Shown here one piece after another: positions 18,340 through 64,000 of a stretch of DNA of 64,000 nucleotides. The position numbers and the translations under genes are program-made. The DNA comes from Podarcis vaucheri. Taxonomy: Eukaryota. Each line of letters opens with the position of its first letter. Position 1 is the first letter of the stretch. The notes below the pieces were generated by a model. The model saw only the letters and a list, made by a program, of their open reading frames with translations, was not told where the DNA came from and made no database searches. The stretch lies in assembly GCA_965113315.1 (NCBI GenBank), contig OZ220368.1; one strand, written 5' to 3'.

Positions 18340-18716
18340 TGGCTCATCTAGACCAGCACCCTGTTCTTATAGTGGCCAACCAGATGCCTGTGGGAAGCCT
18401 CCAAGCAGGACCTGAGTGCAAGAGCACTCTGCCCTCCTGTGATTCCCAGCAACTGGTATTCAGAGGCATCCTGCCTCTGACAGTGGAGGTAGAACACAGT
18501 CCTCATGGCTAGTAGCCATTGACAGCATTGTCCTCCATGAATTTGTCTAAACCTCTTTTAAAGCCACACAAGTTGGTGGCTGCCACTGCTGTCTGTGGGA
18601 GCAAGTTCCATAGTTCAACTATGTGCTGCATGAAGAAGTACTTTCTTTTCTGTCCTGAATCTTCATATGTTCAGCTTCATGGCATGTCCACAAGTTCTAG
18701 CATTATGAGAGAGGAG
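18340..18716 (-). mobile_element. Older CR1-type LINE 3' region, left part (interrupted by the young CR1)
   Basis: Aligns by eye with the copy at 62700-62948 plus 63313-63450 (e.g. gtggccaa.cagatgcct, tgaagaagtactttctt, tgtcctgaatc). Confidence 0.7.
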
Positions 18717-19733
18717 GAAAACCGAACCCAAAGGGTGCTCATCAATGGTTCCTCTTCATCCTGGAGAAGAGTGACTAGTGGGGTGCCACAGGGTTCTGTC
18801 TTGGGCCCGGTCTTATTCAACATCTTTATCAACGACTTGGATGATGGACTGAAGGGCATCCTGATCAAATTTGCAGATGACACCAAACTGGGAGGGGTGG
18901 CTAACACCCCAGAGGACAGGATCACACTTCAAAACGACCTTGACAGATTAGAGAACTGGGCAAAAACAAACAAGATGAATTTTAACAGGGAGAAATGTAA
19001 AGTATTGCACTTGGGCAAAAAAAATGAGAGGCACAAATACAAGATGGGTGATACCTGGCTTGAGAGCAGTACATGTGAAAAGGATCTAGGAGTCTTGGTT
19101 GACCACAAACTTGACATGAGCCAACAGTGTGACGCGGCAGCTAAAAAAGCCAATGCAATTCTGGGCTGCATCAATAGGAGTATAGCATCTAGATCAAGGG
19201 AAGTAATAGTGCCACTGTATTCTGCTCTGGTCAGACCTCATCTGGAGTACTGTGTCCAGTTCTGGGCACCACAGTTCAAGAAGGACACTGACAAACTGGA
19301 ACGTGTCCAGAGGAGGGCAACCAAAATGGTCAAAGGCCTGGAAACGATGCCTTATGAGGAACGGCTAAGGGAGCTGGGCATGTTTAGCCTGGAGAAGAGG
19401 AGGTTAAGGGGTGATGTTCAAATATATAAAAGGATGTCACATAGAGGAGGGAGAAAGGTTGTTTTCTGCTGCTCCAGAGAAGCGGACACGGAGCAATGGA
19501 TCCAAACTACAAGAAAGAAGATTCCACCTAAACATTAGGAAGAACTTCCTGACAGTAAGAGCTGTTCGACAGTGGAATTTGCTGCCAAGGAGTGTGGTGG
19601 AGTCTCCTTCTTTGGAGGTCTTTAAGCAGAGGCTTGACATCCATATGTCAGGAGTGCTCTGATGGTGTTTCCTGCTTGGCAGGGGGTTGGACTCGATGGC
19701 CCTTGTGGTCTCTTCCAACTCTATGATTCTATG
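18717..19733 (+). mobile_element. Young 5'-truncated CR1 LINE (RT C-terminal part of ORF2 plus 3' UTR)
   Basis: Motifs [31 protein letters not shown] and [15 protein letters not shown]; one frameshift near 19410; ORF2 stop at 19660-19662; ends in CTATGATTCTATG, the CR1 octamer tail. Confidence 0.97.
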
Positions 19734-21493: not shown

Positions 21494-22290
21494 TACTTCC
21501 GGGTTAGCGCAATCAGCAAATGGCGGATTCCCTCTGAGCTTCGGAGGGAATCGGCTTGGTGGAAGAGGGGTCCTGCCGCGGCGATGACGCGGGGACCCTC
21601 AGAAACCACAGGCGCTGAAGCCTGTGGACTTGGTGACTCGGCGGGCACCATTTGCGCCCCCCCTTTTTAAAGGCTTCGGAGCGGGTGGCAGAGAGCGGCG
21701 TGGTGCTGTGAGTAGACTGCTTCTTCCACGGAGTGAAGCCGCAAGCCATGGCTGGAGAGCGCTGACTTCTTTCCTTGACCATTTGGACTTCAAAAAGTAA
21801 CAACCCGTGAGTAATACGGAAATTGGAATTAAAAATTTCTTTTAATTGAATTCGGTACGACCGGGGGAGGTGCCAAAAGGAAGTCCGCCTCCCCCCCTCA
21901 CAGACAATTTAAAGCAAGAATTAGATAACTAATGTTGAGAGACTGTCTTCCTCTCTTCGAGACAGAAATTTTTAATTTCACGACTTGGACATACAAGTTT
22001 ATTACTGGAGGATTAGAACTGAACGTTAGAGTTGAAGTGTAACCCTCCCCCCCGGATCCGGGAGCGATCCGCGAGAGAGCCTGTAGAAGATATTTACAGA
22101 GTTTGACAGCTGTCAAATGAGCTGTCAAAGTCAGGAAATTCTGTTTTTTGCTACTTGTGCCGGTTATTTTTGTTACATTGGACTTTAAGTGTTTGAAAAT
22201 AGAGAGGAAATAAGAACAAAATAACCTGATTGTTGGAGAAAGAACACTTAGTAACCAGAATCCCTCTAGAGGGGGTTCTGAGATATTACA

Positions 22291-22896
22291 ATGGTTGCAG
22301 ATGGAAAAATACAGGCAGAGTTGGACAGAGTGTTTGATTTCCTGGGAAAGCTGCAAGAGCAGAGTGATGTTATGGTTACAAATCTTGCAACCTTGATCCT
22401 TAAAATAAACAAATCTGCTGAAGCGGTTAAGGACTTGACTCAAGAAAAATCTGCAGCTGGAAAGGAAGATACATGTGCCGTTTTGGAGGAATGCGAAGGA
22501 GGAGCTGAAACGCTGCAAGTGAAAAAGGACAACCAGAGGCCTGTTAAGTTGGAATATAAGGAAAGCAAGGTTTGGAAGACGAAAATTTGGTTTGAAATGG
22601 AGAATGAAGATTGGGGATTTTTCCCTATGGGGAGTCCGGAAGACCCATGGATTACAAATTTGATCAAGGCGAAAACTGGAATGTTTGGGACATTTGGGAC
22701 ACTTGGACTTAAAAAGAGTAAGAAGCAGGACCTAGACTCTTTCTTTGAATATGGAGGCCTGGTTAGAAAAAACATAGACCCTACTGGGTCAAAGATGCTC
22801 CGAGATCTGATGTTCAACATAAAGGACTGTCAACAAAACCAGCTGAAAGGGACTGAGAGAGATTTAAGGGCCTCGGACGTGATAGATCCAGGCTGA
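22291..22896 (+). CDS. Intact 201-aa ORF of the inserted element; N-terminal coiled-coil-like region, function unknown
   Basis: Strong Kozak context (acaATGG), uninterrupted frame, heptad-like hydrophobic spacing over roughly residues 7-50. Confidence 0.55.
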   Translation: MVADGKIQAELDRVFDFLGKLQEQSDVMVTNLATLILKINKSAEAVKDLTQEKSAAGKEDTCAVLEECEGGAETLQVKKDNQRPVKLEYKESKVWKTKIWFEMENEDWGFFPMGSPEDPWITNLIKAKTGMFGTFGTLGLKKSKKQDLDSFFEYGGLVRKNIDPTGSKMLRDLMFNIKDCQQNQLKGTERDLRASDVIDPG

Positions 22897-44069: not shown

Positions 44070-44081
44070 CTTCTCGCGGAT
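44070..44081 (-). CDS. PTPRF: PTPRF mini-exon B (meB), 12 nt, DPRE, in the Ig2-Ig3 linker
   Basis: ctttcatctctcag|ATCCGCGAGAAG|gttggt, phase 1-1; gives YVR-DPRE-VRRV, matching the 4-aa xxRE meB of LAR-family phosphatases. Confidence 0.9.
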
Positions 44082-49789: not shown

Positions 49790-51119
49790 CAGGGTATATA
49801 AGGTCAATAATAAGCACATTATGTTTGAGAAATGGGCATTTCTGCTGCACAGATAAAGAGTTCAGAGACTATCTGAAACTTCAGCATCGTACAGATTTGT
49901 ATGTTGAAATTGTTCTGCAAGATGAAACGGCACCTGTAGAAAATGAGTGCTGAACACAATGAGAGTAACCGAGAGACCTAGAAGCAATCACACAGTAAGT
50001 CATTTTGGCTTCTCCTGGGAATAACTCTTCCTCAGCTTGGTTAAGGCAGCTCCCCTCCACCCCACAAATAAAAGGCGTGTGCATGAGTATTAGGAAGCAA
50101 TGATCAAGTGGGGAGACAGAGAGAGAGAAAAAAGAGAAAAGACAGAGGAAGGAATGAAGATGGAAACAGTATTTCTAAATGGGTAGTTATTGAGATCCAG
50201 GACCTAAGAAGGAATAAAATATGAGTTTAACTGCCAACCAGTCAAAGGCACCAAATTGACACTCTTCTTCTTTCCCACTGTTATGTAAGTAACAAACCAC
50301 ACCTCCAAGGGGTGTCTTACATTAATATCCCTGGCTAATACAAGGTCTGGCCAAGGAGAACACACATTGTCCCCATGTAAAACAGAACAGAAAACTCATC
50401 AGCTTTTAATGAAGTACCAAACTCTTTGCTCTCCAAACACAAAATTCTGTATCAAATTTAACGCAGTGAGTGAAAAGACTTTGAGATCTAGGAATAATAA
50501 CAAGTTAAGAAAACAGTCTGGCAAAGTGGCTTCGTGCAACAAACTGAAGCTGATTCTCAGAAGGAATGGAAGCTATTGTAATAGCTTCTGCAATAATCCC
50601 CGTTGCTGACAAGGTGTTGACCAAGAGAGCTTATGGAAACTAACATGCTATTCCAGAGTCAACATGATGCACCAACTCACCTGCAAGAGAACAAGTCAAG
50701 CTTATGAAATGAATGCTCAAAGCTTTATCTCATTAAAATAAATAAATAAATCCTCCCCAAAAAGGGTGGTGGTGAGAAAAAGAGAGACCCACTAATTTCA
50801 CAAAGCCCCCAAACACGCTTTTGTTTAACAAAATATACAAATAATTAAACATGAACTTCTGCCCCCTTTATGACAGTGTTTTAACCAGTCTGACCATTAA
50901 AGAAGCTCTGGCGAAAAAAATGAAATAAAGAAAAAATATTGTGGCAAGAATTGACTTTCCAAGGCTTGAACTCAATGACTGGTTGGGCATTTAGGTTTCA
51001 TCATTTACAATGCATCATAAAGGTAACCTCTCACTGCAACGTCTCATGGGTCATTAGAGAAGGTGTAGACATGGAAGAGAAGGTAGAAAGGGATGGAAGT
51101 TTGCCTTCTCCAACTTTAC

Positions 51120-51230
51120 CTCGCACATAAAGGTTGGCTGGAGCAGAGTAACGGGTCCCAGCACTGTTCGTGGCGACACATTCATATTTGCCTTGGTCTG
51201 ACTCTTCACTGTTCTCAATCTGTAGAGCTC
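51120..51230 (-). CDS. PTPRF: PTPRF exon, Ig2 C-terminal half ([37 protein letters not shown])
   Basis: 111 nt, phase 1-1; cacatag|GAGCTC ... GTGCGAG|gtaaag; translated by hand. Confidence 0.97.
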
Positions 51231-52679
51231 CTATGTGGAAAATAGAACACAGACAATATTGGTTATAATAATATATTTACAAAACATGTAAATTTTTGCT
51301 CTGTGTCCCTAACTTAGGACACAAAGGGTTTCTGGTAAATGTGTGGCATGGCACTTCTCAGAGGGTCCACCAAACACCACTTCCACTTGGTTGTTGCTAA
51401 AAAGCACCTGCTGTGTCCAGTTTTTATAGCTGCACAGGCAAACAGTTACTGACACCTTTTCAATTCACTTCTTATGGAACACATCCATTTCTACCAAGCA
51501 AAGAATTCAGGTTTATCCGTTGAAATATCACAACAAATACAATCTTCACACAACCAATTTGCATCTTGATGCACTACTCTCCTTCCTTTAATTATCAATT
51601 CGATTCTCTAAAATTAAACTTTCACTTCCCCATAAAGTATGAATAACAGAATCTTAGAAACCTACAAACCAAAAGGATTACAAGATTGTACCCTGAGAAG
51701 TCCTTTGCGTTTCTGCTTCTGAAGACTACTCCTTTCATTTATGATAAAGTCCTCAATACAGTCACCAATACAATTAATAAGTCAGCATCAGAAAATGGTA
51801 CAACTTGTGTTAAATCCAATTTAAACCTGAAATCAGCCCAACCAACATTAGGGACAAATACGGCTTGAATGGAATTCTTGTTCCTTATCTCGTCCATCAT
51901 AGATGAGTGCTGAACCCTGTCCAGTTGTTTCCTCTGGAAATCATTTAAAATGGGCTGCATCTAGCTTGTGGAGGAAGTAAGGATGACAATAGTGAAGGGG
52001 AAAATAAGCAAAGGGTGAATGTAGAAGTAGCCTTGATGCCACTTTGCCAGATCAGAACCTCCATACTTCCTGAGTAGCAAAGATTTTCTTGGTTCTTCCA
52101 GAAGTTGAGATTCCAGAGATGGCAGAAGAGGGCATTTGCTCAGAAACACATACACACCTGAACCAAGAGAAAAAGCATTAACCTGTCTGCTTGTCAGAGT
52201 CTGAACCCATTTCCATTTGCCAGAGAAAACAGCACTGTGAACAGAAGCCAAAATTGCTGTCTCCGCTCTTCCCACTTCAAGGAACGGAGGTCAAATTCAG
52301 TTTTCATATCATTGCAACAGAAGGAAAACTAATGTGAATCAACTGCTGCCACCTACATTATTTAGAAGGATAAATTGAGACTGTAGCCTAAGTCTATATG
52401 TCAGGGAGAGAAAAAATGAACCTCACTGAGCTTTGCTATGTAATAAAAATGATGTAGGGAGCCCTTCCTATTGTTATACTGGGGCTGGCAAGGGGCAGCC
52501 AGAAAAGCCTTCCTTCTGCCACTCTTAAGGTGTTTTCACATATAATACTAATAAGTTGGCTGTTCTTTAATACAGCAGCAGCAGCATTATCAGGTTTGTT
52601 TTTAATGTTTTGTAACCCAGACCAGGAAAACTTCATCTACTACTACTGCTGCTGCTACGTTGCTGCTGTTGTTAAATTT

Positions 52680-53590
52680 ATTACCCACCCTTCATCAGCA
52701 GGTGCCAGGGCTGGTTACTATGATTTAAATTCAGTATTAAAAACAGTTAAAACTAATTTCAGGTGGGTCCTGAAAACACACATCTGAAAACACCAGGATA
52801 AAAAGATGCGTCTTCAGCAACTGACAAAGGCTATATAGCAAAGGTGCCACTATTTATAAGCTGCTGCAAAGAATGTCCTCTCCTGAGCCATCACCTTGAA
52901 TTTCTGAGGGCGGCAGAGCCACCCAAAGGGCGTCTCTGCTGATCTTAATATCTGAGAGGGTCTGTAGAGAAGGCAGCAGTGTCTCAGATATTTGGGGCTT
53001 AAATAATTTAGAGCTTTAAAAACTAGCATGAGCAGCTTGAATTGGCAGAAAATGTAGCTGTTTTAGAACATGAGTTGCATAGGGGATAGCTCAGTTGGTT
53101 AGAGCATGGTGCTGATAATGCCAAGGTTGCAGGTTCAATCCCCGTATGGGACAGATGCCTATTCCTGCATTGCAGGGGGTTGGACTAGATGACCCTTGTG
53201 GTCCCTTCCAGCTCTACAGTTATATGATTCTATAAGTGCTAAAGGCAAACCCAGCCAGCGATCTGACCATTGAATTTTGAACCAGTTTAAGTTTCCAAGT
53301 CATCTTCATGTAGAGTAGTCCAATCTGGAAGTTACCAGAGCATGCAGCACTGTGGCGAAGTCACCTCTGTCCATAAGGGGTTGTAGCTGGCAAACCAGCC
53401 ATAGCAGGAAATTAGCCACCAAAAGTGACAATGCTGGACAACACCCTCAAGCTATGAACCTGCTTCTTCCAGGGGATTGCAACCCTGCTCAGAAGAGGCT
53501 GCTCTCCCAGCTCCTGGATTTTCAGGATTCATTTCTAATTTGTTGGCCCACATCCAGTCCATCACTGCCTTCAAATATAACAAAATATAG
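52680..53590 (-). mobile_element. Degenerate L2 LINE fragment hosting a tRNA-SINE insertion
   Basis: LKAVMDWMWANKLEMNP (L2-like WMRANKLKLNP) and SRLDY motifs; similar by eye to 25330-25600. Confidence 0.7.
53080..53233 (+). mobile_element. tRNA-Ile-derived SINE with CR1 3' tail
   Basis: Head TAGCTCAGTTGGTTAGAGCATGGTGCTGATAATGCCAAGGTTGCAGGTTCAATCCCCGTA (A and B boxes, GAT at 53114-53116). Tail GCAGGGGGTTGGACTAGATGACCCTTGTGGTCCCTTCCA...ATGATTCTAT closely matches the CR1 end at 19679-19733. Confidence 0.88.
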
Positions 53591-56500
53591 TAACAGCAAG
53601 CAATGATGACCTGCATCATGGCTGACAGGAGGCAGAGGGAACCCCCAAGAACGGGGATCCAAACTCCTAGCCTCCTGTTCCTTGACCCTGGATATTTCCA
53701 AACATTATGTATGTGCGTTTCCCTACATTGCTCCTCTCTACTTGTGAGGCGCATGCATATGCTTTATATCGCCTTCCCCAACCCCAAAATGTTTTGTACT
53801 AGAATTCTCATCATTCCTCACTATTGGCTTTGCTAGCTGGGGCTGATGGGAATTGGGGAAGGCTACTCTCTACTGACTTGTAATTGCAAGTGAAAATAGG
53901 TTGTGGGGGTTGGTGGGCTTCATAAGCATGGTCAGAGATGGCTAAAATAAATAAATCCACAGATACCTTCTCACCATACATTTCTGAAGGTATGTCTAAT
54001 CTATGGAACATAGAAGTGTTCTGGTTTTGGCAGGACCTGCCTTGCTTTGCCAGCAAAGTTAATGAAAAATGTTGACTGTCTCATTAACAGAGCAATCCTA
54101 TGAATGTTTACTCAGAAGCTTCACTTGTATTCAGTTAAATTTATGTTCATATAAGTCCACAAGAGTGAAACCTTTTTGAGGATTTGATGAGGAAGGCAAA
54201 AGCCTACTTTCACAATCTCACACTGGGTTCTTGCAGCTCTGCAGTTGCCAGTAGAGTAAAATGGTGCACAACATTTTCTGGATCATGATTTATATATCAA
54301 TACTCTACTTAACATGCCGCTTAGATTTTCAGCTCTAATAATCCTAGGTGCTACCTGGAACGGCAGCCAAATGCCCCCATCTCAAATTTATTTATTTTTT
54401 ACGGCCAAATAAGCTAAATAAATAAAAACAAAACTACCACAGTGATGTTATTACTGATGCTCATTATGTTCCTGTTCAGCTGTGCCTCTTCTTCCTGAGC
54501 ATGATGATTGGCATGGCTGGGACCTGGAATGAAGCTGGGTTTCTGTGATATATACAAGTGAGGCAGTCACTGACGGAGAGCTATGAAACTGAGCAGCACA
54601 CAAGGGCAAATGCAGGAATACAGCTCAATCACTGATTCCCCTTCCTTTTGTGTATCATGCATCTGGCATTCATGCACTTTCCTCTTGTACTCCAGATACA
54701 GAAAAAGAGAGATTGAGATATGCAGATCCCAAGAGAAGCAGCACTACAAGGCTGCCAAAGAGGGTGCTAAGGGCAAAACAGCGTGAAATTTGGGCAACAG
54801 TAAAAGTATTAGATAAAAAGTTTCTCAGCCCTTCTCTGCCAATTATCAGATCTTTCTGTTTCAAAGTAATTGTCCTTCTGCTTTGCAGTGGTGAAACTCA
54901 CACTGGAGGAAAGTCTATCCAGTCAACGGGTACGAACGCTTTCCAATTGATTCCAATTTATTTTGTGAAGAAAAGGACCATTTAAAATGCTGTCTTCCCT
55001 TTAACACTTCCACTGCTTCTCATGTACCTGCAATGGCAAAATCTGAAGCATCAGAGGTCCATGACATGCCAGCATTTTCTGCTTCCAGGAGAAATATTTC
55101 TCATAATATTTAATTGCATTCTATAACAACATAGAAAACTTGATTTGAACTTTGAGAAAGGGGACATGTGTCAAGTCACTTCCCCTAAAGCAGCTTTTAT
55201 TTTTGCTTACTAGCCATCCTTCAAAATACACATCCATTCATCCATCCTCTTGTCTAACCTGCCAGTCACCAACTAGACCCATGCATCTCTGAACAGTCTA
55301 TCAAAACTCACCCTGACCTTTCAGCCTGGGTCTCACCTGAAAGGCAAAGGGGGAATGTTAAAAGTGACAACATGCCTTGTGAACACAGAGCTCTCAGTTA
55401 GAAAAATGACAGCACCTCTGGACAGCAAGAGTAGAACTGCGGCTGCAGGGCCCAAAGGAAAGGTTAGTTTCAGAAATAAAATTTTATCCTGCTTCTCCAG
55501 CCTGACTTCCATAACACTTCCATTCAATAGGCAGAAAGTATGATTGGCCCTTCAATGCATTCACATAGAATCCACCTCTCAACATGAACCACTGAAAACT
55601 TTACATCCAACTAGCCGTGCAAACAAAAAAATAATTTAGTTTTATTTCCACATCAAATTGATCCCAGAAGTGCAACAAACTTACCTTAGTGAGAACCACA
55701 GTACAGACCACTATGTGAGTATAACCTCCCTTTCACAAAAGTGCCTTTACCTACCACATCTGGTAATCTTTAGAGACTCAATAGCCTGTGTGTTTAACAA
55801 AAGGTGTAAGTCTGACACAAATCCTGTATGAGATGCTAAGAGGTGGCTTTTTGGCACGTACAGAAATGTCATATTTGACATTCAAACGGGACACATACAT
55901 TTTAAATAATGTCAGACACATTCTTAAAATACCTCATTAGGACTCAAGATAGGGAGATTTATGTTTTATGAGATGGATGATTCTCATTATAAAGATATGT
56001 CCACTTTCCTCAAAAAGGATGTACGGAACATCCAGGCGGTTCTGGTGCTGAGTCATCAATGCCCTCGCTTGTTGATACAGAGGAAATACATAGCAGTTTG
56101 TGCTGGGAAAGGCCCAACCTGATATGGGCAAAGATAGGGCCTGCTTGGTTACTTAGCATTCAGTCTGTCATTTTGCTTTCAGAGTTGTGATAGAAGCAGA
56201 GAAAAGGTTTTAAAAATGTGTGGCATCACAGCTGTCAATCTTGCAGCATTCCAGAGACATGACAGAGAAACCCATTCATATCAAAATGAGGTTTACAGTT
56301 TTTCCCCTGACCCAGATTTTTCACAGAAGCAACTTGATGCAAATACACTTGAAACAGCAACCCCCATTTGCTCCAAAATCACTTAACAAGAACTGAAAAC
56401 ATTAACCCCCAGCAACAGAACCAGTTCCAAAGACTTGGATTATTAACTTCTAGCAGTGATTCAGTGGAGAGAGAAGGGGAGGAAAGAAGGGGAGCATTGG

Positions 56501-56902
56501 ACAAATGAGATAGTGTAATTTAGTGGTGCTAAAAAGTTTATCAGGAAATTCAGGGGTCAGTCAACAGCAGTAACTGAAATCACAAGAGATCAGAGTCACA
56601 CTATATAGTACTGATTACAACCTTAAAATTAATTCAAGGGACTACTTTGAGTGTGTAGGCTAGAAATGTTACTAGCACATATAGGCAGTGAAACTAGCAA
56701 GGTCTGGGAATGCAGAGCTGTCAGACTGGAGGTGGATTGAACAATTGAAGACTTAATGCAGCCAGATGTGTGTCTGATTCATTTACTCACAACAAATCTT
56801 TATGCTACAGTGCACCATGAATCCTTGTCAGGCTTCAGAAGGGGTGGAGCTGGCATCTTAGATCTCCTCCCTTCACCTTCATATCAGAGAAGGGCCAGCA
56901 AA

Positions 56903-56905
<3 letters not shown>

Positions 56906-56939
<34 letters not shown>
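56906..56939. repeat. (TAA)n microsatellite
   Basis: Direct inspection. Confidence 0.95.
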
Positions 56940-56940
<1 letters not shown>

Positions 56941-57488
56941 TTATTTATTAAATTTATGAAAAGGTGCACCTTCAGCTCTCAAAGAAAGTCCTCCAGTCTT
57001 ATTCCTCAAGTTAGATTTGCCTGGCATTTTAAGAATTTATTTCCTTTGTATTAGTTCAATTCCTGTCAGCAATAATGCAGAAGGAAGGGCTTCACTGTTC
57101 TCTTGTGAAAGTGTTACATCCTTCAAAACACGCCACAGCAGCTATTTCAGACCTGCCAGGACGTGGTGCCCCAGAGGGTGACTGAATCTGAAAGATTCAA
57201 GACCTCAGAGCCCTCTGTGGCATGAATGGGGATAGCGTTCTCCCTCTGAAAACCTCCCGTTGAATAACCCCTTTTGACCTGTGCACACCTGCGATGGATG
57301 ATTCTACAAGGCGCCACACTAAAAATAAACAAAAACAAGCACACACAGGAAGGAACAGCAGATGCGCAAGTGAGCTGACAAGAGTTTGGAGTGAAAGAAT
57401 AGCTGGAGATGATATACTGTTGGAGACGGGCATGGCAGAAAGGATATGGAGTGACATGACAATTAGAGGCACAGTTCAGCATTCTTAC

Positions 57489-57506
57489 CTCTGATTGGTG
57501 TACCAC
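57489..57506 (-). CDS. PTPRF: PTPRF mini-exon A6 (meA6), 18 nt, GGTPIR, within Ig2
   Basis: ctcaccag|GTGGTACACCAATCAGAG|gtaaga, phase 1-1. The peptide matches the family meA6. A UGC lies about 20 nt upstream, with a CTAAT branch-like motif further upstream. Confidence 0.92.
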
Positions 57507-58570
57507 CTGGTGAGGTAATTTGAATGCAAATAAGATTAGAGAGAAGCGTTAGTACAAAGAGGAAAGGAAGAAAATTGTAACTAAAAAAGTAGAAAGTTTC
57601 TCAAAGCTAGAATCTGTATTAGCGCAACAGGAACAAACAAAAATAAATAAATAAAAAGAAATAAAGGATGTGCAGTAACAAGTCAGAGTGATGCCCTCAG
57701 GTGGTTAGTAAAGCTCTCTGCTACCAAGAACACAGAGTCTGGCCCCATTTTACCCAATTAATATATTGCTGGTCCTACACAAAGGAGGGCTCTGACTCCT
57801 AAGCAAAACCACTAGCATTCATTGTCACAACTGAGATGGAGAAGCCACTGGGATATGGGTGCTGCGCCCTTTTATTCTGCCAGAAGATGGGGCTGTGGGA
57901 GTACCAGAGTGAGGGTTGTGAGAGAGTGTGTGTGGGGAGAAAAATTAAGCATATGGTGTTGGTGAGACACACATTCTTGGTTTAAGATTACATGGACCGT
58001 TGGGGACAAAATCTGATTATGTAATTGAAACTTAAAAACTGAGTGATGAATTCAGGGGTAACTTTAATAAAACCTACACCAGGCTCCCCCTGGCCAGAAA
58101 TTGGTATTCTACACAACAGATTTTTCAAATAAAAATCTAAAGCACTTTCTTCTAGTTTTTATTTGGACCAATGGAGCACCAGACTCGCTCTGCGTAATTT
58201 ATACAGTAGGCAGAGGAAAGGGATTCCAACCCTCCTTATAAGGGAGCAGAAAATAAGTTCACATGCTATGAGTGCATCTTATAAGGAGGGCTTGGTTACA
58301 AAGCTAACTGCTCCAAAACCTCAAGCAAAAGTGCAGTTTGCTCAGTCATGGGCTTTATTGTTAGCATGGCCCAGATGTGCAGAGGGAGACCCGTGTATGT
58401 AAACTGACAGCAAACTCCTCTGATCCCCAGTTTTGTCCCCTTGGTCTTATTTTGTGCAAATGAAGGCTGTTAGTAAGGTGAGGGAGATTCATGCAGATCT
58501 AATTTGTAGGCAGTTCATGGTATGTGTTGGTTTGATGCAAATTTTGCACATCTGAACACCAAGCACTTAC

Positions 58571-58579
58571 CAAAGAAAA
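58571..58579 (-). CDS. PTPRF: Candidate PTPRF 9-nt mini-exon A3-like (VFF)
   Basis: ccctctctttctatctgtttaaactccccag|TTTTCTTTG|gtaagt, phase 1-1, about 1.06 kb upstream of meA6, where meA3 lies in PTPRD. Confidence 0.7.
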
Positions 58580-61500
58580 CTGGGGAGTTTAAACAGATAG
58601 AAAGAGAGGGTTAAACAGGACACAGAGCGTCAAATCATGTTCCGTGTATTGATCAATAAATACCAGTAAGCATATGAGTGCTGTGTATCTGAGATTAACC
58701 GCTCCCCACATTCCATTATCCACAGCACTGATCACCCAATGGGAAACAAAGAAAGACACTCAAAGATTTCTGTAAATACAAAGAAGGCAGATTTTAAGCA
58801 TGTTTAACTTGCCTCTTAAAGAGTAATTAAAATATTTACACTTGTTATCTCTTTCCCTCCCACTCTCCTAGTGCATGTTCCTTCAGGCAGTAGCCCTAGC
58901 TTTTAATCAGAGGAAGCAGTTCCAGCTGCTTCGTTTAGCATTCTCCACAGCCGAGATGACATTACTCCATTTTCGCTTTATGGCTGGTTTATACTTGCTG
59001 ATGCTTTTGTCCACAGATGAGTGAAGCATCAGGAAGGCTAATGTCGTTTGCAGAAGTTGCGGGTAATCTCTACCATAATAAATCTGCTGCCTATTTATCT
59101 GCTTTTCTAACTACCATTCCATCCCCCTTGACAGAACCATTCTCATCACGGAAGCTTGCATGGCTCACAAGCTGTACTGACAGGAAGAAGAGGGTTATTG
59201 GTTCATGTCCCAAAGAAAAATTTGCCGAGTGCTTACTTGCCCCTGCACCATCTCCAAATTATCGCTGTAAATAAAGAGTCTTTATCCCCTTCCCCCACTC
59301 TAAGAGACAAGAAGCATCTCTTACAACAGAGTCCAGAAATGATTCCTGGCTAACTGAAGCAGCATCTGTTTTATGTTGCTGCCAAACAGATCTGGAGCTG
59401 TTCTGTATCCACCTAGTCACTGAAAATTCTGTATGGATGCAAAGCTAAGGAATCCCAACACACACTCAAAATGGATTCCCTAAAGTTTAGCTGGTATGTT
59501 ATTAAAACCCAGTCTCCAGATCTCAGTGTAAGATAGCCCTTGCCAGAGCTGTATAATGACTTTGAAGCAATGAAACAAGATCTCTTTGGACTAGTATGCA
59601 CTAATATATGTTAGAGAATATGGCAATAAAAGACATAAAATAAAAATTATTCAGAACTCCCATGATAGTGGTCAGGATCACCAAATGAAGATGTAAGTCA
59701 TATGCTACAAAATAAAAATTTGGACAACATCCTAAGTTTTAACTCCAATGGAGTACGTTTTCAGCATGAACAAGAATGCAGAAGCTGCCAGTTTATCCAA
59801 TTCCTGTCATCTCTCCTGCTTGAAACCTGGAGACCAACTGCTAGTCATTATAGACTATATTCAGCTAGATGCACCAATGGACTGACTTTGCATGCAGCTT
59901 CCACTGTTCTTATAAGACATCCACCCAACCTAAATAATTAATGACACTTATTATTGTGCTGCCTTAGGGTGCTTCCAGGAGGGGGCTTATATTGCAAACA
60001 TAATGCTCAGATCAGATATTTCAGTGTGCACATTTGGCATGTTAGCTTCCACATATTTCTGTTCCCCACCTCTCTCCCAGTCATGGATATCATTGATATT
60101 CTGCCAGTTGCTGTCCACATTAGAGGACCTCAACAGAGTGTATATGAAAATGGTTTTGTTGTCCCTCCTGTCCAACACTCCACCACCACCCTCCATTGCC
60201 TTCTGCTCTGTGCATGTATGCAGGTATTTCTATACCTGTGTACAGACTGTCGCATTAGGGCCATCCACTGAAATGTCACCACATGTGACAAACTGCCACC
60301 ATCACCACACAAAAAAGTGCTAATGCACTAACTAGCTTCCACACCCGCAGTGACTTTAGGCTTATAAGTTATTTTTACTTATCTATTTTTCGCAGTAAGG
60401 GGTATGGAAATTAAATGTAAAAAAATATATTGCTTGGCATTTTGGTGACAACAACTTCATGCGGACACTTCAAGAAAAAATTGCATGGTTCAGCAGCAAT
60501 TCCACAATAAACTTCTGTCTGGAAGCACCCTTAGTAAGCAGAGACAAGAGCAGGAATTTGGCTGTGCATACAGTCCTTTCATTCCTCACTTCAAGCAAAA
60601 CAAACCATTAACGATAGTTTCCCATTTCATCTGAACTAGGAAACCATGGTTACCAGTTAATTAAACTTTGAAAAACTGTTTAATATCTTGGTTTGTTCTG
60701 AAGATGTTAACCAAAATTTCCTGGTTTGGATGAAAACAGGAAATTATAGTTAAGGAATGACATCTTCATTTGCTCACTTTCTAGCACAAAGGAGCTTTGA
60801 ATGTGATCAAAAGGCTTGTCCATATCACTGATAATCTACATTAGAAACATTCAGGTCTGAATGACCATTTAAACCGAATCCAAACAATTTGAGGTATATG
60901 GCACTTTGCACAGCCTTGAATGCATAACTACAGATATAGCAGACCTGAGGATCTGACTTTCCCAATGAGGTAACTAGGCCAATAATATTTGAAAAGAATG
61001 TTGGTATGCGAGTGCTACTCTGAGTAAAAGCTCAATCCTAACCATGTCTACTCAAAAGTAAGTCTGACTAGAGTCAATGGGGCTTTCTTCCAGGAAAGTT
61101 AGCTAGGACTGCAGCCCAAGCCACCCTAATTCTAAAACCTTTCCACACTTCTGCTGTTCCTTATACTGGATGCTCTGGGTGTTAAGTAATGCAGATCCCA
61201 CCAATGTGTATAAAATGCCTTCCATCCTACAATGCCTCCTAGTAACATTCCCAGGGTTGGCTTTACTGAGAATTCTGTTGTTCAAAATTTTGTAGTTTTT
61301 GGTTGCTTCAATATTAAAAAAATTATAAACCATTTTGGTTGCCTTGGCAGAATGGCAGTCACATAAATACGTTTAATGGATGAATGACTATGCCCACACT
61401 AAATCCATTTCATTACTACTTTTAATTTATGACCAGCCACATTTTCTATTAATGCCTGGCCCAAGCAGCAAGAGCAACTTTGCTGGCCACTTTCTTGATC

Positions 61501-62699
61501 TGGTACTGTAGGAGTATCTTTTAATCATAACCTTGCCAATTATACAATCTCGCCTCCCATTTCAGCTTTGGCTTGTGTGTTTCCTCTCATTTTTACACAA
61601 ATTTTTCAGCAAAGTGTAAATGCCTTCTCCTTAGCCTACATCTTTACTGCCACGCCTTCCTCCACTCTACATAAGTCAATGTTTAATATGCCCTTATTTT
61701 ATTTTACAACATTATTTTATTTAATAGTACCTTGAGCAGCAAGTGCAGGAGGGGTGTGATAGAAAGAAAAACAATTAACAACAGCAAATCTTTACATCAC
61801 TCATCAGCCAGGACCATTAGAGGAACTGTGTTGCCAAACCTCTATGTTGCAGATCTGTCTTCCTTTGCTTGGGGAGCAAGTGATGAAGTGGGAAACTAGG
61901 CCTCTAACATAATCATTCTATGGCTATGTTCCATTTTGAAAGCAATGTCCTAAACACTTGAGGTAAAAACCTAACACATTTTGACTGCTTTTTAATCTTG
62001 TTCATCTTTAAACAAACTCAGATTGAATGTCACAACCTGAATCTTACACAAGTAAGTCAACTGCCTCTCTTAGATTGTATCATGTAAAGGCACAGTTTAG
62101 TTTTTATGATCAAACATTTATTACTATTTACTTCATTTTGGGATGCCACGTTTAGTTGCACCTGGAGGAAAAGCCCACAAATTGCCCTGTCCAGCCTCGG
62201 TACAATCAATAGCGAGGAGGAGCTGCAAGCCACTGTCTAGACTTCGCATTAGTTTTCTTCCACAGTAAATGTAGGAAATATGACTATAACCTTTAAATAC
62301 TTGTTTTCTTTTTTAATAAGTAAGAAAGTTAATCAGAATATGAGAGTGGGGCATGTGAGAGATTATCTGCTGCAGGTTCTATAAAATATGCTTGCCTTTT
62401 ATTGCACATAGCACTGGTTATATTATTTGTTAATGCATGATTATACTGGAAGGCTTTCTCATATCTGGCTTTGGCTTACCTATTTAATATAAATAATATC
62501 AGCTGATAAGATTTAATGACTTATATTGTCTATTTTATATAAACATTATAACGTTCGTTTTATCGAAATGAATGATTTATTCAAATTTTGTTATATTTTG
62601 TAATGAATTGGTTTTGGACTATTTAGTGTAGTGATGTATTCATATGTTTTTGCTGTTTTGTTGTGAGTCGCTTTAAGGCATGCTTATAGTGGTAAGTGG

Positions 62700-64000
62700 C
62701 ATACATTAGAAGAACCCTGCTGGCTCAGAAACTGTCTACAGTGGCCAAACAGATGCCTATTGGAAGTTCAGAAGCAAGACCTGAGAGCAACAGCACCCTT
62801 TCCACTGATGATTCCCAGTAACCTCAATACTGCCTCTGACAGCAGAGATAGTACATAGACATCAAGGCACTAGTAGCCACTGATAAATTTATTCCTAATC
62901 CTCTTTTTAAAGCCACCCACACCAGTAACTACAACTACATTTTGGTGGTGTAGATTGTTGAATGGTCACTTTAAAATGTGAAGGTTCATTATTGCTTCAC
63001 AAGTTGTGCATGTCTTTAAGGGCCAGGGCCAAGGCAAATAACGAGACCCAGTCTTACAGCTGTGAAACATAGCAGGTGCTGCTAGGTTGTGTTAATTAAG
63101 CTGTGTCAGCATTTGGGCATAGTATATAAGGAACAGCACCTAGCTCCCTCATTACCCTGGGGGATGGGTTGGTGGTTGGGTCTGGTTTGTTGTTGATGTA
63201 TTTAGTGTATAAGGAGTTTTTGTTTTTGTTATTAAAACCTTGTTTAAGTTATTTTTGAGTCCCTTTTTAATGCATGGTCTCCCCAGCAAGCTCTCTGCAG
63301 CGCTACTAAACTGCAAATAGCCATAGTTAATAATAAATTAGTTAATTTTATTTCAGCTGATTATATACCTGTGTGAAGAAGTACTTTCTTTTATATGTCT
63401 GTCCTGAATCCTCCAACGTTTAGCTTCATTGGATGGGCCCAAATTAGTATGAAAGTGGGAGAAGAATGTCTCCCTATCCAATTTCTCCACACTATGAATA
63501 ATCTTACACACCTTTACCATGTCCCTGTCACTCAACTTGTATTGTAAACTTCTCATGGGGGAGTTGCTGAAACCTCTTGATCATTTTGGCTTTCCCTTTC
63601 TGAACCTTTTTGAACTCCACAATATCCTTTTAGAGGTGAGTCAACCACAAGTGTACACAGTATTCCGAATGAAGTTGCACCATAGATTTGTATAACAGCA
63701 TTATGATATCAGCAGTTTTATTTTCAATTCCTTTCCTAATGATCCCTAGCATGGAATCTGCACTTTCAGTTGCTGATCACTGGGTCAACAACTTCAAGTT
63801 ATCTGCTGTGACCCCAAAATCTCATTTCTAGTGAGTCAGCACCAATTCACAATTTTTTTTGCCTCAGTGTGCATCACTTAACACTTCCTTACATTGAATT
63901 CTATTTGCCATTTTATGCACACTCACCCAATTTGGAGAGATCCTTCTGGAGCACCTTACAATCCAATTTTTGTTTTAAACACACTGAACGATTTGGTATC
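62700..64000 (-). mobile_element. Old CR1-type LINE, interrupted at about 62949-63312, running off the window
   Basis: Minus frame RDMVKVCKIIHSVEKLDRETFF matches the CR1 ORF2 C-terminus; further decayed motifs toward 64000; homologous to 18340-18716. Confidence 0.8.
62949..63312 (+). mobile_element. Possible solo LTR nested in the old CR1
   Basis: About 360-bp block absent from the sister copy. Starts TGTAG, contains TATATAAG (63123) then ATTAAA (63231), and ends near GCGCTAC. No clean TSD. Confidence 0.4.

Follow-up and report, generated by a model that had tools for sequence, protein, structure and literature searches.

A candidate 9-nt meA3-type microexon in the PTPRF (LAR) gene of the lizard Podarcis vaucheri, with an identical predicted peptide in bird gene models

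Does the receptor phosphatase LAR, encoded by PTPRF, possess a two-exon meA insert like its paralogues? In PTPRD (PTPdelta), meA3 is a 9-nt, phase 1-1 exon upstream of the 18-nt GGTPIR exon (meA6) and serves the same Ig2 loop; it reads ESI in mammals and Xenopus and ESF in teleosts. The MicroExonator supplements (PMC7821500) list 9-nt exons for mouse Ptprd and Ptprs; that of Ptprs has 48 reads, the class "Excluded" and an ESF reading in phase 1. In the corresponding introns of mouse Ptprf and of the two zebrafish ptprf genes, the same supplements list the 18-nt exon alone. Mouse targeted RNA-seq presents the Ptprf meA as one exon (PMC10883964), a length of 18 nt is given for zebrafish and mouse (PMC12626420), and six residues are assigned to the LAR meA in a review (GGSPIR; PMC6078854) and in PMC8711739. 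A single 18-nt exon is thus all that is reported at this site of mammalian (GGSPIR) and zebrafish (GGTPIR) LAR in these sources, and the statement of the preliminary description that mammalian LAR has only the six-residue meA is borne out by PMC6078854 and PMC10883964. A possible exception was raised by a 9-nt segment in a 64,000-nt stretch of the Podarcis vaucheri genome, hereafter called the window (Table 1).

The exons in the window are 85–100% identical to those of PTPRF from P. muralis and L. agilis, with 99% identity of the Ig3 exon to Podarcis/Lacerta PTPRF, and by this sequence comparison the host gene is lacertid PTPRF. An assignment to PTPRD, taken from the best PDB matches of Ig3, was rejected by protein and exon comparison with lacertid PTPRF; the PDB matches listed included no LAR Ig3 chain.

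Table 1. Positions of the candidate microexon, its predicted splice elements and neighbouring PTPRF exons in the window.
Feature	Position	Strand	Description
Candidate meA3-type microexon	58571..58579	minus	9 nt, phase 1-1, VFF; same peptide in Catharus PTPRF; aligns with the 9-nt exon of fish locus L001
Candidate 3' splice region	58580..58680	minus	CU-rich tract and CAG; AG-free zone of 99 nt; final ~26 nt align with L001
Candidate 5' splice site	58561..58570	minus	GTAAGT plus 4 nt; 10/10 nt identical in L001
TGCATG (RBFOX-type motif)	58490..58495	minus	+76 from candidate; L001 equivalent at +70; motif identity from PMC12064062
TACTAAC (QKI-type motif or branchpoint-like)	58469..58475	minus	+96; ACTAAC at +97; L001 ACTAAC at +87, within common 10-nt block
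meA6 microexon (GGTPIR)	57489..57506	minus	18 nt; UGC at -22; letter-identical to zebrafish ptprfa meA
Downstream Ig2 exon (GALQIE...NLYVR)	51120..51230	minus	
Likely meB microexon (DPRE)	44070..44081	minus	12 nt; 100-nt AG-free zone; DQRE in mammalian and fish LAR

Direct reading of the minus strand confirmed the splice layout first described, a phase 1-1 exon of 9 nt about 1.06 kb from meA6. The segment is preceded by CAG (58582-58580) and a tract of 77% C/T over 30 nt, ends in G, and is followed by the GTAAGT donor (58570-58565); it lies 1,064 nt upstream of meA6. Being frame-preserving and AG/GT-bounded, it has the structure of meA3, and in phase 1 it translates as VFF. The V, which had been assumed from the family, is right because fish upstream exons end in S+G and the bird protein described below reads S-VFF-G. 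The TGCATG motif said to lie about 75 nt downstream is found at 76 nt (58495-58490). A location after the first Ig2 exon and before meA6 is indicated by the meA6 spacing and by the insertion point after KQLRS in the bird protein; the upstream Ig2 exon itself falls outside the 64,000-nt window.

A simple splice filter for exons of 3–30 nt passes 13 minus-strand and 10 plus-strand sites in the window, so that splice signals alone are no proof of an exon, and TGCATG occurs 43 times on the minus strand. Several features in combination single out the candidate. Among 27 AG-9nt-GT sites in the upstream intron, of which 6.5 kb lie within the window, no other has a GTAAGT donor, and among the 454 such sites of the whole window no other reads VFF followed by G. 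Its AG-free zone measures 99 nt, and values of at least 98 are reached by 0.24% of 4521 AGs. TGCATG and TACTAAC meet within 150 nt at a single minus-strand locus, that of the candidate (124 overlapping 150-nt spans).

Protein records supplied independent evidence. A first protein search with cluster look-up returned no 3- or 9-residue meA insert in PTPRF (0/195 proteins), a result overturned by an insert-aware profile in which the three insert columns were match states (8000 candidates scored, best 120 taken) and which, when tried locally, raised the score of a VFF form by about 9 bits. VFF was present in three PTPRF RefSeq isoforms of the thrush Catharus ustulatus, X13, X15 and X16 (XP_032923274.1, XP_032923276.1 and XP_032923277.1), which read KQLRS-VFF-GGTPIR-GALQIE, exactly as predicted from the lizard DNA, and whose exons match those of the window at 71–100%. 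These records are automatic gene models, examined here as proteins, in which the insert is unnamed; the evidence for splicing into mRNA accordingly consists of the gene models of one bird, and the lacertid and other squamate records retrieved are without the insert.

The VFF form is seldom annotated, in contrast to the ESF/ESI forms of PTPRD, which are commonly annotated and functionally studied. Among 307 parsable junctions (of 570 proteins), 3 carry VFF, 146 GGTPIR and 145 no insert, and VFF species number 1 of about 52 among the matches listed for the insert-aware profile. No squamate VFF form occurred among the representatives listed (best 120 of 8000), where one would be expected to rank first (313.5 versus 304.1 bits in the local test); the profile scored cluster representatives only, and unlisted members may carry VFF. 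Further PTPRF proteins with the insert were absent from the best 120 of 304 matches in a short-protein search, and a 50%-cluster search, of whose 150 matches 16 were inspected, returned mostly multi-Ig proteins. Two fish PTPRF-like records (Scomber and Melanotaenia) score as if the Ig2 region were present twice, reflecting either duplication or an assembly artefact. The LAR meA3, or VFF form, was not found in the literature searched, which was mainly open-access, and earlier notice is possible. The form is already auto-annotated in one bird, Catharus, so that the case described at the outset as real but not novel, an orthologue with the exon annotated, applies to that species.

A second line of evidence came from fish DNA. 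When metagenome contigs were scanned for a degenerate meA6 motif, two vertebrate-like loci emerged, L001 and L002, both from one assembly. Besides meA6, L001 has a 9-nt exon that encodes ESF and lies 758 nt upstream of it. Compared by blastn with positions 51000-64000 of the window, it gave two matches at E <0.01, one at meA6 (86% over 87 nt) and the other covering the candidate and its two splice sites (80% over 45 nt, E 1.7e-4). A 53-nt block score reached 20 at the candidate, against 3 at the next best site and a background of -14.3 +/- 5.1 (454 AG-9-GT sites). Both loci have TGCATG and ACTAAC downstream (+76 and +97 in the lizard, +70 and +87 in L001), and the three differences between the 9-nt exons are all changes to T in the lizard that lengthen the pyrimidine run. 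By this alignment of exon, flanks, donor and downstream motifs with one fish locus, the candidate is almost certainly homologous to meA3.

L001 is most likely fish ptprd, because annotated PTPRD of a teleost (Poecilia) includes ESF-GGTPIR and the mouse Ptprd meA3-meA6 spacing is 720 nt by the coordinates in PMC7821500; this identity derives from its two microexons only, the contig having no large exon. An assignment of L001 to PTPRF is supported by meA6 flanks closer to the lizard than those of L002 (86% versus 79%) and disfavoured by the annotated ESF-GGTPIR of PTPRD and by the presence of a ptprfa-like locus in the same assembly. That locus, L002, comprises an Ig2 exon of fish ptprfa type, meA6 and the complete intron between them, which contains no counterpart of the candidate (best block score at most 4). 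A 9-mer reading DTF, 591 nt upstream of the L002 meA6, was rejected for its weak donor and flanks without a match. The flanks of meA6 (57440-57560, with a branchpoint-like TACTAA, TTTGCAT and the donor) are common to lizard PTPRF, L002 and L001, suggesting conservation that spans the paralogues.

The exact Catharus peptide and the homology, flanks included, to a fish PTPRD-type meA3 support the original proposal of a meA3-type exon giving VFF-GGTPIR in PTPRF. Because the VFF-GGTPIR isoforms of Catharus and the fish match agree, the candidate very likely represents the PTPRF paralogue of meA3, retained in sauropsids. The proposal that lizard LAR keeps an ancestral meA3 gains from the same two observations in its ancestral part, and the bird isoforms show that the exon is not specific to lizards. 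We consider it probable, on comparative grounds, that the 9 nt are a protein-coding cassette microexon under selection. LAR of reptiles and birds would then have a splice choice undescribed for that of mammals, and its synaptic splice code might be expanded, as first proposed. The lizard exon differs from PTPRD meA3 in its host gene, in the VFF peptide with loss of the acidic first residue, and in the absence of a nearby UGC. It resembles PTPRS (PTPsigma) meA3 (ETF in human, ESF in mouse) as a 9-nt exon ending in TTTG with F as third residue; this comparison covers the exon, and the partner exon of PTPRS is ESTPIR, as against GGTPIR in lizard PTPRF.

Other segments of the window also deserve mention. 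DQRE is the LAR meB peptide (PMC8711739) and occurs in Alosa proteins as well, and the squamate, bird and turtle proteins retrieved contain no meB insert; given the likely meB at 44081-44070, an A9/B+ combination may be possible in lizard PTPRF. Between meA6 and the GALQIE exon lie two AG/GT-bounded minus-strand segments, 55312-55336 (25 nt) and 52183-52274 (92 nt, its end taken from a 95-nt trial), which together add 117 nt in frame and would encode a 39-residue, three-cysteine insert near-identical to that of five Hemicordylus capensis RefSeq isoforms. A Phrynosoma model has the same two segments out of frame, and the 25-nt segment alone shifts the frame to a stop; the two could represent a poison or paired cassette conserved in squamates. 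An intronic open frame of 340 aa (18516-19538, plus strand) resembles a CR1/LINE reverse-transcriptase fragment, and the overlapping intronic frames at 21898-22896 (204 aa plus, 277 aa minus) are probably a retroelement ORF1-like fragment.

Regarding splicing control, SRRM3/4-dependent microexons are marked by a UGC shortly before the 3' splice site (PMC12626420). The nearest UGC lies at -93 for the candidate, compared with -22 for meA6 and -37 for the L001 meA3; of the features of an SRRM3/4-type neural microexon, the candidate therefore has the CU-rich tract and lacks the close UGC. RBFOX and QKI bound downstream promote exon inclusion (PMC12064062), and these factors, acting on the downstream intron motifs, would promote inclusion of the 9-nt exon instead of an SRRM3/4 UGC element. 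Considering that VFF appears in 1 of about 52 species listed, that the squamate records retrieved are without it, that the upstream UGC is missing and that the mouse and zebrafish tables give only 18 nt, inclusion is probably low or cell-restricted; mouse PTPRS meA3, retained yet rarely included, is a precedent for a meA3 that is kept and little used.

As to its history, the candidate would descend from a two-exon meA in the common ancestor of PTPRF, PTPRD and PTPRS, probably ESF-like, since ESF is found in both teleost PTPRD and mouse Ptprs. The change to VFF would have preceded the lizard-bird split, on the sauropsid stem or earlier, and PTPRF of teleosts and mammals would have lost or silenced its meA3.

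The 9-nt exon is predicted to extend the ligand-contact loop of LAR Ig2 from six to nine residues. PTPdelta binds IL1RAPL1 with a Kd of 0.15 uM as meA9/B+ and 0.81 uM as meA6/B+, and binding of the A3 form is not detectable; the meA9 loop lies between two strands that contact the ligand, and Glu188 binds via its main-chain nitrogen (PMC4423211; PMC12598525). Contact residues are mostly conserved among type IIa RPTPs (PMC4423211). By analogy, a LAR meA9 would act like that of PTPdelta, with higher affinity for IL1RAPL1-type partners, and the E-to-V change should be tolerated because meA3 of PTPdelta makes its contact through a backbone nitrogen. A review places the meA3 Glu among residues in extensive contact with IL1RAPL1 (PMC6078854), which implies some side-chain role, so that V may weaken binding. 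Mouse LAR is mostly without meB (PMC4423211), a point that also weighs against the proposed role. The notion that the PTPRD meA tunes binding to both IL1RAPL1 and IL-1RAcP stands for IL1RAPL1 (PMC4423211) and hardly for IL-1RAcP, since the meA variant has little effect on binding of the latter (PMC4423211; PMC12598525). An AlphaFold2 model of the bird Ig1-3 from an 18-row alignment keeps the fold (mean pLDDT 84.6), matches PTPdelta, PTPsigma and LAR structures, and gives its lowest values in the insert block (55); it fits an exposed loop and is silent on binding.

Three alternatives have to be weighed against a coding meA3. The 23 filter-passing sites, together with the absence of the insert from the squamate records retrieved, would suit a splice-like pair that arose by chance in an intron rich in pyrimidines, the bird models then being an annotation artefact. 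This is very improbable, because the exact peptide was recovered in a bird orthologue by an independent search, VFF is read at a single one of the 454 sites, and the homology to fish meA3 takes in both splice sites and two motifs. A homologous relic with a regulatory role, whose meA3 splice sites and RBFOX/QKI block tune meA6 inclusion by decoy or stepwise splicing and leave the VFF protein a negligible by-product, agrees with the rarity of VFF in annotations, the missing UGC, the three changes to T that extend the pyrimidine run and the near-constant skipping of mouse Ptprs meA3. It is nevertheless unlikely: the lizard and bird peptides are identical with the frame kept, the bird gene models carry VFF together with meA6, and every paralogue has a hydrophobic residue in third place (ESI, ETF, ESF and VFF).

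The remaining alternative accepts the exon and changes its role: instead of copying the PTPdelta code, an exposed V-F-F would offer a hydrophobic patch to a partner not bound by PTPdelta meA9, or would block IL1RAPL1. Two of the three residues differ from ESF, ESI and ETF, lizard and bird share the change as a fixed one, and the insert is modelled as an exposed, low-confidence loop; against this, the known meA3 contact is backbone-mediated, and the side-chain changes may by analogy be neutral. A new function is somewhat less likely still than the regulatory relic. IL1RAPL1/IL-1RAcP signalling through PTPdelta and not LAR is explained largely by splice inserts (PMC4423211). A wider reading of the coding exon, which we put forward tentatively, is that sauropsid LAR keeps the full ancestral code (meA3 VFF, meA6 GGTPIR and meB), cut down independently in mammals and teleosts, and that some neuron class would make an A9 isoform under RBFOX/QKI and not SRRM4, as a second IL1RAPL-type receptor or, through VFF, for a new partner.

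The locus concerns one small exon of a well-known type, already in one automatic annotation, and its significance is moderate and its novelty modest. A conserved sauropsid LAR meA3 would mean that all three paralogues once had a two-exon meA and that the one-exon LAR of mammals is likely derived. VFF versus ESI/ESF would moreover offer a natural test of whether meA3 acts by loop length and backbone or by its side chains.
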